From NCBI GenBank assembly GCA_034669905.1, contig JAXMOL010000002.1, positions 160,001 through 224,000 of the forward strand: DNA of 64,000 nt, in the 5' to 3' direction. Below are positions 58,299 to 64,000 of this stretch, one piece after another; within the stretch, counting starts at the first letter, position 1; the number at the start of each line of letters is the position of its first letter. The stretch is from Candidatus Hydrogenedentota bacterium. GTDB taxonomy: Bacteria > Hydrogenedentota > Hydrogenedentia > Hydrogenedentales > JAEUWI01. The position numbers and the translations under genes are program-made. Below the pieces are notes generated by a model. It was not told the origin of the DNA. It saw only the letters and a list, made by a program, of their open reading frames with translations, and searched no databases.

Positions 58299-58892
58299 AT
58301 GAGCGAATACGTCCCACGCATTCTCGCCTTCGCCGGCAGCACCCGTAGCGATTCCTACAATAAGAAGCTGGCCGCCGCCGCGGCAGAGGCCGCCCGGGCT
58401 GCCGGAGCCGACGTGACCCTCGTCGACCTTCGTGACTACCCCATGCCCTTATTTGATGAAGATCTTGAATCGGCAGAAGGGCTTCCCGAAAGTGCGGTCA
58501 AGCTACGGGAATTGTTCCTGCGTCATGACGGACTGATCATCGCCTCACCGGAATACAACGGTTCCCTGAGCGCGGTGTTGAAAAACACCATTGACTGGCT
58601 GAGCCGTCGCCAGGGCGATGAAACACCGCTCATCTGCTTCCGCGAAAAGGTGGCCTTACTCCTCGCCGCTTCCCCCGGTGGCCTCGGCGGCCTCCGTGCC
58701 TTGCGACACCTCAACACCATCCTCCACGGGATTCAGGTCATCGTGCTCCCCGAACAGAAGGCCATTCCTGCGGCCCACAAGGTCTTCGACGACACGGGCA
58801 TCGCCGATGCCAAAGTGGCGAAATCCGTCGCCGATCTCAGCACCCGGCTCGTTGAAATGACCACGCGCATCCACCAGAAAAACAACGGCTAA
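58299..58892 (+). CDS. NADPH-dependent FMN reductase (ChrR/YieF-like)
   Basis: GSTRSDSYN, SPEYNGSLSAVLKNTIDWLSR, ASPGGLGG. Confidence 0.93.
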   Translation: MSEYVPRILAFAGSTRSDSYNKKLAAAAAEAARAAGADVTLVDLRDYPMPLFDEDLESAEGLPESAVKLRELFLRHDGLIIASPEYNGSLSAVLKNTIDWLSRRQGDETPLICFREKVALLLAASPGGLGGLRALRHLNTILHGIQVIVLPEQKAIPAAHKVFDDTGIADAKVAKSVADLSTRLVEMTTRIHQKNNG

Positions 58893-58916
58893 AGTCCAAC
58901 CGCCCCCTGCCGATAA
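58889..58916 (+). promoter_or_regulatory. sigma28 promoter 1
   Basis: TAAA-N15-GCCGATAA; the -35 box overlaps the FMN reductase stop codon. Confidence 0.85.
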
Positions 58917-58922
58917 GTAAAG

Positions 58923-59104
58923 CACAGGCCAAGACACGGAAGTCGCGGCGACGAATTGACACGGAGGTCAACGGAGGTGGCGAAAGAGACTAGATGAACC
59001 GTCGGGTGTCATCCCAACACCAACGCGATCGACGTTTTGTCCCACAGTCTTTCCATCCATGAGAGGCGCCATAGCACACGCTGTTGTGGCGTTTTTCTAT
59101 TTTA
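58923..59104 (+). ncRNA. candidate sigma28-dependent sRNA 1 (antisense to flagellin 2 RBS, CsrA-type loops)
   Basis: Promoter, GAC-ACGGA-GTC hairpins, AUCCC hairpin, 26-bp complement of 62168-62196, terminator at 59066-59104. Confidence 0.75.
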
Positions 59105-59191
59105 TCCGCCCTTTTTCCCGCGTACGCTGCCCCACGCCCCCCGACTTTTCGCCCACGCCCCAGCCGCCCATCCAACGCCGGCACATTTCCG

Positions 59192-59219
59192 CTAAAGGTT
59201 CTCGCTCCACCGCCGATAC
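59192..59219 (+). promoter_or_regulatory. sigma28 promoter 2
   Basis: TAAA-N15-GCCGATAC. Confidence 0.8.
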
Positions 59220-59225
59220 TCTAAT

Positions 59226-59393
59226 CACAAGGCGACGACACGGAGGTCAACGCCGGCACGACACGGACGTCATTGCTACTTATCCTGGATACATACTCAC
59301 AGGGTGGCCAATCCCACCACCTGCTATTGGGAGTGCCCCAGGGTCTTACCTCTGAAACGCGTTGCGGTCTACACTGCAACGCGTTTCAAATTT
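59226..59393 (+). ncRNA. candidate sigma28-dependent sRNA 2 (antisense to flagellin 3 RBS, CsrA-type loops)
   Basis: Two GAC-ACGGA(G/C)-GTC hairpins, AUCCC hairpin, CCCAGGGUCUUACCUCU seed, 13-bp perfect terminal stem at 59353-59388. Confidence 0.72.
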
Positions 59394-59425
59394 ATGGGGC
59401 ATACTCCACCGATCCCATATTTCTG

Positions 59426-59453
59426 CTAAAGTTTTCTGCGGCACCGCCGATAC
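59426..59453 (+). promoter_or_regulatory. sigma28 promoter 3
   Basis: TAAA-N15-GCCGATAC. Confidence 0.8.
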
Positions 59454-59459
59454 CATCAT

Positions 59460-59590
59460 ATTAAGAGACAGATTTAACGTGTTCTTCAAGGAACGCTGGG
59501 GTGTCTATCCCGCACCGTATTCCAGCCGTTAATCTCTGCTTCTTACCTCCCCTGGTTGCGTCATGGCATTGAACCATGGCGCATCTTTTA
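59460..59590 (+). ncRNA. candidate sigma28-dependent sRNA 3
   Basis: AUCCC hairpin, UCUUACCUCC seed, terminator TGCGTCATGG/CCATGGCGCA-TCTTTTT. Confidence 0.68.
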
Positions 59591-60361
59591 TGTGGGCTCC
59601 ACACCGTCATACAGCACTTCCTTCATGACTAGCCCCTGGGGCGGTGCGCAATGCCCCAGAAATGGCCCCCCCGACACCAACGCCTCCTGAAGAAACTCCG
59701 GACCAAAACGCCCCCGCCCTATCTCCACCAACGTGCCGGAAAGATTACGCACCATCTTATAAAGGAATCCATTGCCAAAAAACTCGATGTGCCACAGGTT
59801 CTGGCCGTCCCGGGGGCCCACCACCGCCCCTTGATGGAGCGTCGCGGCGTAAATCGTACGCACCGTCGTCTTCATCTGACACCCCGTGCTCTGAAACCCT
59901 GCGAAGTCATGGGTCCCCTCCAGTTGAGGCAAGAGCGACCGAATAAGGTCGATATCCACCCCGTAAGGAACCTGCCAGCTATAGGGAGCACTGAAGGGGT
60001 CCATTTCCCGACTGAAGTGAAAGGTATAGCAATAGCGCTTGGCCTTCGCTGAAAATCGGGCGTTAAAATCGGCAGAAACCGCTTCCAACGCCGTAATTTG
60101 GATTTCCGGCTCTAACATGCGACACAACGCATGGCGCAACGTGGGCGGCACCGCCTTGGGCCATTCACAGGAAAAGACCTGTCCCAGGGCGTGGACCCCC
60201 GCATCGGTGCGGCCGGCCCCCTGAATGCGGATAGGCTGAGAGGCAATCCGGCTCATAGCCGCCTCAATATCCCCTTGAACCGTCCGTTGGTCCTGTTGGG
60301 CTTGCCAGCCGGAGAAGGGCGTTCCAAGATAGCGCACAGTGCCTTTGAGTGTGGTGGTCAT
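59588..60361 (-). CDS. truA: tRNA pseudouridine(38-40) synthase
   Basis: FSGWQAQ, AGRTDAGVHALGQ, FNARFSA, GTHDF, GFLYKMVR, APPQGL. Confidence 0.96.
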   Translation of the reverse strand: MTTTLKGTVRYLGTPFSGWQAQQDQRTVQGDIEAAMSRIASQPIRIQGAGRTDAGVHALGQVFSCEWPKAVPPTLRHALCRMLEPEIQITALEAVSADFNARFSAKAKRYCYTFHFSREMDPFSAPYSWQVPYGVDIDLIRSLLPQLEGTHDFAGFQSTGCQMKTTVRTIYAATLHQGAVVGPRDGQNLWHIEFFGNGFLYKMVRNLSGTLVEIGRGRFGPEFLQEALVSGGPFLGHCAPPQGLVMKEVLYDGVEPT

Positions 60362-60672
60362 GGGCCTATTGTAATCGAGCCACGGATCCACCTACCACTT
60401 TCCGAGGGCCCGGAGAGCCAACGGTCGCGCTCTCACCCCACCATTTCCCGGCAGCCCCTCCACTGGGCGCAATACCTGGCGTCCATTCGGGGACTTATTT
60501 TCGGTTATCCGGGCCAGGCCGTGCACCGCATACCCCGGATGGCATCCAAAAAAACGAGGAAATTTTTCATTTTTTTTGCGGTGCGCGGTCCCGTATTGGC
60601 TGTTTCGGATTATTCGAAATCGTTTATGTCGGATTGAATCGGTGTGGGTCGGTGATTTTTTTTCAGAAAAAA

Positions 60673-60700
60673 CTAAAGTTGTCGCTCAAGTTGCCGATAA
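60673..60700 (+). promoter_or_regulatory. sigma28 promoter of the flagellin array
   Basis: TAAA-N15-GCCGATAA preceded by A/T tracts at about 60545-60672. Confidence 0.9.
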
Positions 60701-60706
60701 ATACTA

Positions 60707-61145
60707 CAGGTAAGCCGAAACAGGCCTTATTCAGGACAGTTTAAAAAAGTGAAATACGGAGTCCAGGGACGGGTTTCCGCGACATCATGGAGGATGGCGC
60801 ATTCAGCGCGGGGTATGCACCCGCACGACGGCCTCGAGGCCGACGACAACAATTGAATCACGTTGATCGAATACTTCGGTATGGATGAAGGCAGAGCAGG
60901 ATGCTCAACGGCTTCATCAAGAAGAAACGTCGCAGTTAACGAATTGCCTGAAGCACGGGACATGCCTCAGGGATAACGGAGACTGCTTTCGAAATCAATG
61001 GGACCAATCGATTTCACGTAGAAATCGGTTTCTGACGCACCGGACCATGGGACGGTAGCCGCCACACCGTGGTGGGTTACCCGGGATGGGACGTCAGAGG
61101 GAGCGCAAGGATGCGCTCTACCAACCACTCACGGAGGAATACATC
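60707..61145 (+). promoter_or_regulatory. long GGA-rich structured leader (multiple CsrA-type sites)
   Basis: About 19 GGA versus 2 TCC by hand count; GAGCA-GGA-TGCTC and GAGCGCA-AGGA-TGCGCTC hairpins. Confidence 0.7.
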
Positions 61146-61961
61146 ATGGGACTTCGAATCAACACCAATGTGTCTGCGCTCAACACGGCGCGGGTCTTAC
61201 GTAGCTCAACGCTGGACTTGAACAAGAGCCTGCAACGGCTCTCCAGCGGATTGCGTATCAACCGTGCGGCCGATGACGCCGCAGGCCTGGCCATCGCCGA
61301 GGGTTTTCGCTCGGTGGTACGCGGCACGCAGGTTGCCCAGCGCAATGCGCAGGACGGAATCAGCCTGGTGCAGACGGCGGAAGGCGCATTGAGTGAAACG
61401 ACCAACATACTGCAGCGTATTCGCGAGCTCGCCGTACAGGCAGCCAACGGAACGCAGAGTACGGCAAACCGCGTATCGCTGGATGCCGAAGTCGATCAAC
61501 TGTTAGCCCAAATCGATGATATCGCGTTTGACACGGAATTCAACGGTGTCCGGGTACTCAGCGGCGGCACTGTGCTGACGCTTCAAACCGGCGCTTTCCA
61601 GGGACAAAACCTGTCGATTGTGGTGGGTGCTGCGGGTCAGAACCAGATCGGTGTTTCGCCGGTTAACCTGCAAACCGCTGCCGGTGCCATCAGTGCACTC
61701 AGTACGGTAGACGGTGCCCTGCGCTCGGTGAACACGCTCCGGAGTAATCTGGGTGCCTTCCAGAACCGTCTGGAGTTCACCATCAGCACGCTCGCAATCC
61801 AGGAAGAAAACTCTTCCGCGTCCGAAAGCGCTATACGAGATGCCGACATCGCCCAGGAAACGATTCGCTTTACGCGGAATCAGATCCTGGTAAACGCCGG
61901 TACATCGATCCTGGCCCAGGCCAACATCGTGCCACAGACGGCACTGCAGTTGCTGGGTTAA
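61146..61961 (+). CDS. fliC: flagellin 1 (271 aa)
   Basis: MGLRINTNVSAL, RLSSGLRINRAADDAAGLAI, LGAFQNRLE, IRDADIA, QLLG. Confidence 0.97.
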   Translation: MGLRINTNVSALNTARVLRSSTLDLNKSLQRLSSGLRINRAADDAAGLAIAEGFRSVVRGTQVAQRNAQDGISLVQTAEGALSETTNILQRIRELAVQAANGTQSTANRVSLDAEVDQLLAQIDDIAFDTEFNGVRVLSGGTVLTLQTGAFQGQNLSIVVGAAGQNQIGVSPVNLQTAAGAISALSTVDGALRSVNTLRSNLGAFQNRLEFTISTLAIQEENSSASESAIRDADIAQETIRFTRNQILVNAGTSILAQANIVPQTALQLLG

Positions 61962-62189
61962 TACACGTCGACAACCAGGGCGGCCGAACCTCAAGGGATA
62001 CGAGGGGCCGGAAACGGAATTTATGGCCACCGGCCGCCCTGATAATCTTCAACGTAGAGAAAGGAGAACATAGGACTGCGAGTACTTAACGAGTCGCGTC
62101 GTTGAGCATTCGGTTTTTGTCAACTATCACGGAAGAATGAATAACAAAGGGATCGGGAATCCCTTTGGCCACTCATGGAGGAAAGTACT

Positions 62190-63008
62190 ATGGGACTTCG
62201 AATCAACACCAACGTGGCGTCGCTTAACTCGGCGCGTACCCTGAGCCGCTCTACGAGCGCGCTTAACAAATCGCTGGAACGTCTCTCCAGTGGTCTCCGC
62301 ATCAACCGCGCAGCCGATGACGCTGCCGGTCTGGCCATCGCCGAAGGATTTCGGTCGGTGGTGCGGGGCACCCAGGTCGCCCAGCGCAACGCACAAGATG
62401 GGGTCAGCCTCGTGCAAACCGCGGAAGGGGCGTTGAGTGAAACCACCAACATCCTGCAGCGGGTACGCGAACTGGCCGTACAGGCCGCGAACGGAACGCA
62501 GAGCTCTGAAAACCGTGCGGCCCTGAACACCGAAGTATCGCAGCTGCTCGCACAGATCGATGATATCGCCTTCGACACCGAATTCAACGGTGTGGCGGTA
62601 TTGAGCGGCAGCAGCACCCTCACCTTGCAAACCGGCGCCGAATCGGGTCAGACCCTGCAGATTGCTATCAGCAGTGGTGCGGGCCAGGCCGCCATCGGCG
62701 TGAGCACCGTCAACATTTCCACCTCGGCCGGCGCCGTCAGTGCCCTCAGCCAGGTGGACGTAGCCCTGCAGCGGGTCAATTCCCTCCGCAGTAACCTCGG
62801 TGCCATCCAGAATCGTCTCGAATTCACCATCAATACCCTGGCGATTCAGGAAGAAAACTCGGCCGCCTCAGAGAGTGCGATCCGGGATGCGGACATTGCC
62901 CGCGAAACCATTCAGTTTACGCGGAACCAGATTCTGGTCAGTGCCGGCACGTCGGTACTTGCCCAGTCCAATGTGGTTCCCCAGACGGCGTTGCAGCTTC
63001 TCGGCTAA
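62190..63008 (+). CDS. fliC: flagellin 2 (272 aa)
   Basis: Same flagellin motifs; GGAGG RBS. Confidence 0.97.
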   Translation: MGLRINTNVASLNSARTLSRSTSALNKSLERLSSGLRINRAADDAAGLAIAEGFRSVVRGTQVAQRNAQDGVSLVQTAEGALSETTNILQRVRELAVQAANGTQSSENRAALNTEVSQLLAQIDDIAFDTEFNGVAVLSGSSTLTLQTGAESGQTLQIAISSGAGQAAIGVSTVNISTSAGAVSALSQVDVALQRVNSLRSNLGAIQNRLEFTINTLAIQEENSAASESAIRDADIARETIQFTRNQILVSAGTSVLAQSNVVPQTALQLLG

Positions 63009-63227
63009 TTCGCCATCCATAGTTTAAACCGGTTGTAACGTGGTGGCTCCGGCCCTTCCTTTGGAGGGGTCGGAGCAGCACCGTAACTATACGGAAGGAG
63101 TGCATCAGTCGGCCGATTTGCCGTCCATTTACCCACCGCGGGGATAAATAGACGATGAGAAGGCCACGAAGAACATACACCGGGTTGGTTAGGGATACCC
63201 GACCGGGTGATCTTGGAGGTAAGATCC

Positions 63228-64000
63228 ATGGGATTACGTATAAATACGAACATCCCGGCTCTCAACACGAGCCGGGTGCTCGATCGTTCCAGCCGTGCCT
63301 TGAACCGCAGTCTGGAACGGTTGAGCAGTGGTCTCCGCATCAATCGCGCAGCCGATGATGCGGCAGGCCTCGCTATTGCCGAGGGCTTTCGCACCCAGGT
63401 GCGGGGCACCCAGGTGGCGCAACGCAATGCGCAGGATGGAATCAGTCTCGTACAGACGGCCGAAGGGGCGTTGAGCGAAACGACCAACATCCTGCAACGC
63501 ATTCGAGAACTCGCGATTCAGGCCGCCAACGGAACCCAGAGTTCCGCCAACCGCCAGTCACTCAACAACGAAGTGCAGCAGCTGATTGCCCAGGTGGAAG
63601 ACATCGCTTTGGACACTCGGTTTAATGGCATCAACGTGTTGAGCAGCAACCAGTCCATCACGCTCCAGACCGGAGCCAATCCGAGCCAATCCCTTCAGGT
63701 GACCATCGGCGGCGCACGCAGCACCGATCTGCGCGTAAGCGCCGTCAATATTTCGGCCGCGGCAGGCGCTATCAATGCCATCAGCCAGGTCGATATCGCG
63801 CTGGCAAGTGTGAACACCTTACGGAGCAGTCTCGGTGCCTTTCAGAACCGGTTAGAATTCACCATCAATACCCTGGCCATTCAGGAAGAGAATTCGGCGG
63901 CCGCCGAAAGTGCTATCCGGGATGCCGACATTGCCCGGGAAACGATTCAGTTTACACGGAATCAGATCCTCGTGAATGCCGGTGTCAGTGTATTGACCCA
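63228..64000 (+). CDS. fliC: flagellin 3, truncated by window end
   Basis: MGLRINTNIPALNTSR..RLSSGLRINRAADDAAG..LGAFQNRLEF; GGAGGT RBS; open to 64000. Confidence 0.95.
   Translation, partial: MGLRINTNIPALNTSRVLDRSSRALNRSLERLSSGLRINRAADDAAGLAIAEGFRTQVRGTQVAQRNAQDGISLVQTAEGALSETTNILQRIRELAIQAANGTQSSANRQSLNNEVQQLIAQVEDIALDTRFNGINVLSSNQSITLQTGANPSQSLQVTIGGARSTDLRVSAVNISAAAGAINAISQVDIALASVNTLRSSLGAFQNRLEFTINTLAIQEENSAAAESAIRDADIARETIQFTRNQILVNAGVSVLT

Follow-up and report, generated by a model that had tools for sequence, protein, structure and literature searches.

What is the role of a row of putative small RNA genes that lie upstream of tandem flagellin genes and have the same type of promoter, and does each RNA serve one flagellin? 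These questions are raised by a 64,000-nt stretch of DNA (the window) from a Candidatus Hydrogenedentota bacterium, whose genome is G000 in our comparisons. In the window, we found four matches to a sigma28-type promoter motif (at 58890, 59193, 59427, and 60674), versus 0.01 expected; the consensus that we used is one that we take to represent this promoter type. The first three motifs each precede 130-180 nt that end in a hairpin, and the fourth precedes flagellin 1. The genome also encodes FliA, so that both of the features we looked for in sigma28-dependent sRNAs, the motif and the sigma factor gene, are present. The predicted RNAs and their parts, all on the + strand, are:

58890..58915, +: sigma28-type promoter of sRNA 1 (motif search)
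58923..59100, +: predicted sRNA 1 (putative ends); seed at about 59039-59065 matches flagellin 2, terminator at 59061-59097
59193..59218, +: sigma28-type promoter of sRNA 2, kept in 9 of 9 genomes of the genus
59226..59395, +: predicted sRNA 2, about 170 nt (putative ends); fold z-score -4.52, with a consensus structure
59231..59277, +: two hairpins with ANGGA loops, predicted CsrA-type sites (from the fold, the consensus, and likeness to SELEX sites)
59282..59344, +: central stem of sRNA 2, whose 3' arm contains the 5' half of the seed
59308-59316, +: apical loop with conserved UCCC, mean unpaired probability 0.83
59337..59353, +: seed of sRNA 2; 59345-59352 is single-stranded (the anti-SD toehold) and the remainder is in stems
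59353..59395, +: terminator-like hairpin of sRNA 2 (16-bp inverted repeat), with a weak U tract
59427..59452, +: sigma28-type promoter of sRNA 3 (motif search)
59460..59592, +: predicted sRNA 3, without GGA hairpins; seed at about 59530-59556 matches flagellin 3, terminator at 59557-59583

sRNA 2 is predicted to fold into two ANGGA hairpins, a long stem capped by the UCCC loop, eight unpaired bases, which are the seed's anti-SD half, and the terminator hairpin. The other half of the seed, which faces AUGGG, is held inside the central stem. The consensus structure has two-sided changes at 13 of 33 pairs. sRNA 2 is intergenic and has a promoter motif and a terminator-like hairpin of its own, although its U tract is weak and a terminator scan of the window did not call the hairpin. 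A 63-codon frame that begins with TTG at 59273 is broken by 1-2-nt indels among the orthologs, as expected for a non-coding RNA. Across 64 members of the RNA family that we describe below, openness is 0.57 for the 8 nt next to the terminator and 0.34 for positions -20 to -10, which suggests that the RNA docks on the SD first and then pairs further by strand displacement.

In four RNA runs of relatives, from three studies, contigs cover both sRNA 2 and the flagellin cluster, and these contigs carry no strand, ends, or level. They offer two weak hints: most of truA is uncovered in all four runs, and three contigs begin at 60715-60726, just 3' of the promoter of the flagellin cluster. Transcription would start from the predicted promoters. 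The flagellin cluster is arranged as follows:

60674..60699, +: sigma28-type promoter of the flagellin cluster (motif search)
60706..61145, +: flagellin 1 leader, 440 nt with 9 ANGGA motifs; sub-threshold RsmY hit (E 0.39)
61146..61961, +: flagellin 1, which no sRNA of the four prefers as its target
62170..62196, +: start region of flagellin 2, which sRNA 1 targets (seed match, rank)
62190..63008, +: flagellin 2 (gene call)
63177..63209, +: leader hairpin with an AGGGA loop before flagellin 3, a predicted CsrA-type site that the UCCC loop might contact as well
63215..63232, +: flagellin 3 SD and AUG, the target that sRNA 2 and sRNA 3 share (ranks, motif search)
63228..64000, +: flagellin 3, which ends just past the window; flaG is next

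The motif search of the window found no further sigma28-type match between the flagellin genes of the cluster, so the cluster is probably a single operon. The RNA contigs bridge flagellins 1-3, which does not establish one transcript. Hairpins lie between the flagellin genes at 62085-62106 and 63046-63075, and one of them is terminator-like according to the scan; such hairpins could make the operon more polar or more stable.

The first-pass annotation had claimed that the seed of sRNA 2 pairs with the ribosome binding site and start codon of flagellin 3, and that it occupies the same place before the terminator as the seed of sRNA 1. We reconfirmed the pairing: as read from the window, the seed (59337-59353, CCCAGGGTCTTACCTCT) and the target (63215-63232, GGAGGTAAGATCCATGGG) form 17 base pairs, including two G-U pairs, with the A of AUG (63228) bulged. 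The target comprises the SD and AUG of the third in a row of three tandem flagellins. Similarly, the seed lies directly before the terminator hairpin, as does the sRNA 1 seed, which matches flagellin 2 (inverted repeat I1). The last seed base, U59353, already belongs to the terminator stem as its first base (arms 59353-59368 and 59373-59388, a 16-bp inverted repeat), which leaves 16 pairs without competition. Both the seed and its target are conserved, and the seed is accessible in its 3' half only.

The match between sRNA 2 and flagellin 3 exceeds chance. We called 5,511 genes and ranked 19,725 candidate start windows, so that the ranks refer to candidate starts. With a 21-nt seed, flagellin 3 was 6th of 19,725 at -30.0 kcal/mol (mean -12.5, standard deviation 3.9), a rank that is somewhat favoured because this seed was picked around the stretch named in the earlier finding. 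With the same seed, it was 4th among the 4,789 starts with an SD-like motif and 5th among the top 250 once accessibility was corrected for. With a 33-nt seed, flagellin 3 was 98th of 19,725, flagellin 2 was 1,057th, and flagellin 1 was 3,074th.

Does the seed merely recognize any start with GGAGG? The complement of the free 8-nt toehold is found at just 5 candidate starts, and flagellin 3 leads them by 7.5 kcal/mol (-30.0, next -22.5). When we shuffled the ten 5' bases of the seed and kept the anti-SD part, the energies were -18.8 ± 2.8, and 1 of 2,000 shuffles was equally good. Furthermore, the target motif GAGGTAAGAYY(N)ATGGG has 13 matches in 41 genomes, every one at a flagellin start, an outcome that is favoured by the conserved flagellin start that the motif contains. 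Together with the 21-nt rank, these tests support a specificity beyond generic anti-GGAGG pairing, as the first assignment to flagellin 3 implied. Co-folding of the whole molecules leaves a thin margin for sRNA 2 (-12.3 on flagellin 3 versus -11.1 on flagellin 5).

It had also been claimed that there is one sRNA for each of three flagellin paralogs, as an addressable code. The genome has five flagellin genes (two more are on contigs C15 and C39), so the count of three does not hold. In the ranking with 33-nt seeds, flagellin 2 was first of 19,725 starts for sRNA 1, and flagellin 3 was first of 19,725 for sRNA 3. A fourth paralog, sRNA 4, lies elsewhere in the genome (G000:C63:15858-16075; L232/L234); it has a sigma28 motif, a GGA hairpin, a UCCC loop, and a terminator, and every one of the 9 genus genomes has a match to it. 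For sRNA 4 (33-nt seed), flagellin 2 was 491st, the best of the five flagellins but a moderate fit, and its real target is uncertain. (The 7th-ranked start for sRNA 4 belongs to what is presumably a flgF-like gene, judging from its N-terminus.) Co-folding gave -26.6 for sRNA 1 and -16.6 for sRNA 4 on flagellin 2. For sRNA 3 the value on flagellin 3 was only -7.3, short of the -10.3 on flagellin 1, so this match is weak once the RNA's own fold is counted. We also considered sRNA 3 as a regulator of flagellin 1, and rejected this given a rank of 3,922 with the 33-nt seed.

Within the genus, sRNA 1 has flagellin 2 as its preferred target in 9 of 9 genomes, and sRNA 3 prefers flagellin 3 in all 8 genomes in which it was found. 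For sRNA 2, flagellin 3 beats flagellins 1 and 2 in 9 of 9 genomes and every other fetched leader in 7 of 9; the leader of the fifth flagellin, which was fetched for six genomes of the genus, fits slightly better than flagellin 3 in G001 and G008. The fifth flagellin (G000:C39:65835, + strand) is divergent (49% identical), and its start fits the orthologs of sRNA 2 or sRNA 3 in G001, G008, G023, and G025; we found no sigma28 motif in the 700 nt upstream of it. The solo flagellin (G000:C15:22701, - strand) and its orthologs have a short sigma28 leader of their own and are the preferred target in no case.

In 9 of 9 genomes of the genus, sRNA 1 and sRNA 2 divide flagellins 2 and 3 cleanly, as a strict one-to-one code, with an sRNA for every flagellin paralog, would predict. 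Relatives also offer some support: in G020, the second and the third tandem flagellin each have an RNA of their own and one more RNA fits the first or fourth, and paralogs in G030 and G036 fit the first gene of the cluster. Nevertheless, we consider a strict code improbable, because in this genome two RNAs each fit flagellins 2 and 3 while none fits flagellins 1, 4, or 5 best, and because, among 58 UCCC-type members from genomes with tandem clusters, 45 prefer a downstream gene and 0 prefer a short-leader solo flagellin. (Another 7 prefer the first gene, 5 a divergent flagellin, and 1 an unclassed gene; "downstream" here also takes in first genes of G027 and G040 for which no promoter was called.) Thus the addressing itself stands, given the seed specificity, the split between sRNA 1 and sRNA 2, and the co-variation across genera that we describe next, while one sRNA per flagellin fails. 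The code is addressable yet many-to-one, and it is biased toward the downstream genes of the cluster. Seeds that match the cluster's first flagellin are seen in paralogs L086, L089, L064, and L019 (from G030, G036, G037, and G021).

If the seeds act on flagellins, then they should track the flagellin starts of their own genomes. All 64 seeds have generic anti-SD and anti-AUGGG parts, and our test isolates the genome-specific part. We used one genome per genus, for 18 genera with 33 UCCC-type sRNAs and 72 leaders, and excluded genomes without a UCCC-type RNA or with fewer than 2 fetched leaders; kinship is reduced, not removed, by this design. The double-centred fit to the own genome was -3.21 kcal/mol, which 0 of 20,000 permutations reached. 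With one genome for each of 11 families, it was -3.2 to -4.7 in five draws, reached by 0-1 of 5,000 permutations. Shuffled seeds gave +0.17 ± 0.71 (n = 22, minimum -1.76), and a 22-nt seed free of terminator sequence gave -2.29 versus -0.11 ± 0.37 for its shuffles (n = 89). Other controls were the upstream leader (-0.79), the 5' part of the sRNA (-0.65), and the reversed seed (-1.32; 75 of 10,000). The own genome was best in only 8 of 18 genera and ranked 8-13 in four. Individual positions also illustrate the pattern. In the sRNA 2-like members, one pair is C-G in G001-3, G006, G008, and G038, U-G in G000, G007, and G020, and U-A in G025; and in G029 and G035, one extra base is present in the SD and in the seed alike. 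A seed change breaks a pair in G004 and G005, and G018 and G035 have mismatches. Overall, these comparisons support co-variation of the seeds with the flagellin starts of their own genomes across the 18 genera.

This bears on whether the complementarity could be a relic, left by an inverted duplication of a flagellin leader, or a matter of chance. A leader origin is plausible in that the 5' end of the family resembles the flagellin leaders of other phyla (promoter plus GGA hairpin), and the sRNA scaffold may derive from such a leader. However, the complementarity has been kept with two-sided changes across 11 families, and the structure co-varies as well. The co-variation test and the shuffled-seed controls largely refute a relic or chance, and we give this explanation very little credence.

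The promoter-plus-hairpin pattern was found in 35 of 41 genomes, versus 2 hits for a reversed control; some of the hits are mRNA leaders. It is absent from 4 of the 5 genomes without a flagellin match; the fifth, G012 (60% complete), has the pattern. G026 (L052) and G033 (L056) have four-flagellin clusters and no match to the sRNA pattern, and form a natural contrast group. In the fetched loci, our script called 79 terminated candidates, of which we dropped five (four within flagellin loci and one with a doubtful terminator in G022), leaving 74 in 35 genomes; the terminator in G023 was reset by hand. UCCC is present in 64 of the 74 members and two GGA hairpins in 56. A separate clade of sigma28 RNAs (L017, L070, L078, L080, L082, and L084) has two GGA hairpins, no UCCC loop, and a poor fit to flagellins; the sRNA tree served only for viewing groups. 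Several members (the second of G011, and those of G017, G019, and G040) fit no fetched flagellin well, so other targets are likely. In G021, the target motif is present and an sRNA 2 ortholog was not found. Another sigma28-type promoter lies at G000:C21:12743 (+ strand).

The family does not appear to have been described. At the gathering thresholds, Rfam (including its Csr/Rsm models) had no match within the window, and at E ≤ 1 over 58850-61150 the only hit was the weak RsmY hit in the flagellin 1 leader. Our searches of the openly accessible literature listed no prior description; a genome-wide ncRNA screen could hold this motif. A scan with one genome per species found 109 stretches, of which 80 had titles: Hydrogenedentota or Hydrogenedentales is named in 32 and uncultured Nitrospirales or Nitrospiraceae in 16. 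Most of the latter, taking their titles as given, have the same terminated RNA. Judged by pattern only, most hits from Bacillota, Spirochaetia, Nitrospirota, and Kryptonium are without this anatomy, and several run into frames that start like flagellins. The phylum of the family is probably Hydrogenedentota. L123 (titled Hydrogenispora) and L230, from other records, are possible minimal CsrA sponges: both are very short RNAs of the sigma28 type that have two GGA hairpins and end in a terminator-like structure.

What might the GGA hairpins do? The genes for CsrA and FliW are adjacent on contig C20, while neither Hfq (PF17209) nor ProQ (PF04352) was found in the genome, which is 95.7% complete. 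The loops of sRNA 2 resemble the CsrA SELEX consensus RUACARGGAUGU, as given in PMC7652899. ANGGA loops are present on both partners (except for sRNA 3), so that CsrA could bind and assist the pairing, as with SR1, or be titrated. Leaders about as long as the 440-nt leader of flagellin 1 recur across the order, and the flagellin 1 leader itself (60706-61145) is a possible CsrA sponge. The sRNAs might also be CsrA sponges only, with an anti-SD stretch that is incidental or serves internal folding. Dedicated GGA-loop sponges are well known (PMC7652899), and CsrA is present alongside the two CsrA-type hairpins of most members, yet we think this unlikely: sRNA 3 lacks a GGA hairpin, the seeds co-vary with flagellin starts, there are two motifs per RNA, and no Csr/Rsm model matches the sRNAs. 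Internal folding fares no better, as only 6 of the 56 members with two hairpins, and none from the genus, are predicted to pair the seed with the RNA's GGA loops. A CsrA-gated release of the seed from these loops was rejected as a general mechanism on the same counts.

For the UCCC loop, two candidate partners fit equally: a GGGA loop in the leader (run of at least 5; 39 of 51) and UGGGA at the start codon (44 of 51). GGGA loops are found in 48 of 62 downstream leaders versus 5 of 61 first or solo genes. Also, 88 of 95 tandem genes have GGA, the rarest glycine codon in this genome, as codon 2, and 26 of 28 solo genes have GGT there. The leader loops and the GGA codons fit a contact with UCCC, and inheritance could explain the codon. 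In C. jejuni, flaA likewise has GGA at codon 2 (PMC4894983).

We propose that the sRNAs, made by sigma28, keep the downstream flagellins of a single operon from being translated, possibly with help from CsrA, and we consider this to be the probable explanation. sRNA 2 would belong to a family of sigma28-driven, trans-acting base-pairing RNAs that have a scaffold in common and differ in their seeds. In sRNA 2, the eight free anti-SD bases would dock on the SD of flagellin 3, and the pairing would then open the central stem and cover the start codon, which would block translation. (A duplex over the SD and the start codon leaves no room for the 30S subunit.) With flagellins 1-2-3 and flaG apparently under one promoter, flagellin 2 would be repressed by sRNA 1 (and sRNA 4) and flagellin 3 by sRNAs 2 and 3, so that these two downstream flagellins would fall relative to flagellin 1. 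As the RNAs accumulate, driven by the same sigma factor as their target, they could form a delayed brake that favours flagellin 1 and sets the composition or the timing of the filament. In two-flagellin species elsewhere, the minor flagellin is found mainly at the base of the filament (PMC8306008); that a delayed brake would produce such a basal minor flagellin here is our conjecture by analogy.

The pairing could instead be real but activate or stabilize its target, by displacing CsrA from the SD, opening a hairpin at the SD of flagellin 3, or guiding the processing of the polycistron. That SD is indeed predicted to lie within a small hairpin, and FlaX induces flaD while repressing flaB (PMC11879080). 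But the duplex spans the SD and the start codon themselves, and we regard activation as unlikely too. Building on translational repression, we can imagine, more speculatively, a programmable platform in which the two GGA hairpins of a fixed scaffold load CsrA as a stand-in for Hfq, the UCCC loop reads a mark common to flagellin mRNAs, and a swappable toehold picks the paralog. Seeds would be re-aimed as clusters change across the order, and a CsrA-FliW checkpoint would be tied to an ordered switch of subunits. Repression of this kind would explain how several near-identical flagellins on one transcript are dosed separately, which is a question for many multi-flagellin bacteria. It would also be a rare case in which co-evolution of an sRNA seed and its target can be observed over a whole order, and a direct test of whether CsrA can be a general matchmaker for RNAs in the absence of Hfq and ProQ. 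The compact scaffold is possibly useful for synthetic sRNAs.

The closest known counterpart is FlaX of Vibrio cholerae, which represses flaB at its ribosome binding site and alters the composition and timing of the filament. As predicted here, an sRNA pairs with the ribosome binding site of a secondary flagellin and blocks initiation. In contrast, FlaX is a single, ProQ-bound RNA that is cut from the 3' UTR of flaA (PMC11879080), whereas here there are several free-standing paralogs, with their own promoters and different seeds on one scaffold, and ProQ was not found in the genome. In particular, sRNA 2 is upstream of truA and has its own promoter motif, rather than arising from the 3' UTR of a flagellin. 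The E. coli RNAs UhpU, MotR, FliX, and FlgO are also made by the flagellar sigma factor and tune flagellin levels, but they are UTR-derived, Hfq-bound, and non-paralogous, in a bacterium with one flagellin gene (PMC10578931); and MotR and FliX pair within coding regions, unlike sRNA 2 at the SD and AUG. CJnc170 (FlmR) of Campylobacter jejuni is similarly FliA-dependent and unprocessed, has a paralog (CJnc10), is found in a host with CsrA-FliW, and has been suggested to act on flagellar genes including flaB. It differs in being 47 nt long and in that its suggested targets are RpoN-dependent, and the available part of PMC11187230 describes no CsrA hairpins or paralog-specific seeds.

As to CsrA, the matchmaking for SR1 and ahrC in Bacillus subtilis, with GGA motifs on both RNAs, would fit the anatomy of sRNA 2, although SR1 has a single metabolic target (PMC6546359) and the role of CsrA here is predicted from motifs alone. 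CsrB/RsmY, McaS, GadY, and the flaA and hag leaders share the ANGGA motifs in hairpin loops; McaS and GadY combine pairing with a sponge function, and two-hairpin flagellin leaders bind and titrate CsrA (PMC7652899 and PMC4894983). The RNAs described here are unlike these in combining only two motifs per RNA with a sigma28 promoter, a co-varying anti-flagellin seed, and no Rfam match. sRNA 2 is thus not FlaX, not Hfq- or ProQ-associated (by gene content), and not a CsrB-type sponge; instead, it would work like FlaX does on flaB.
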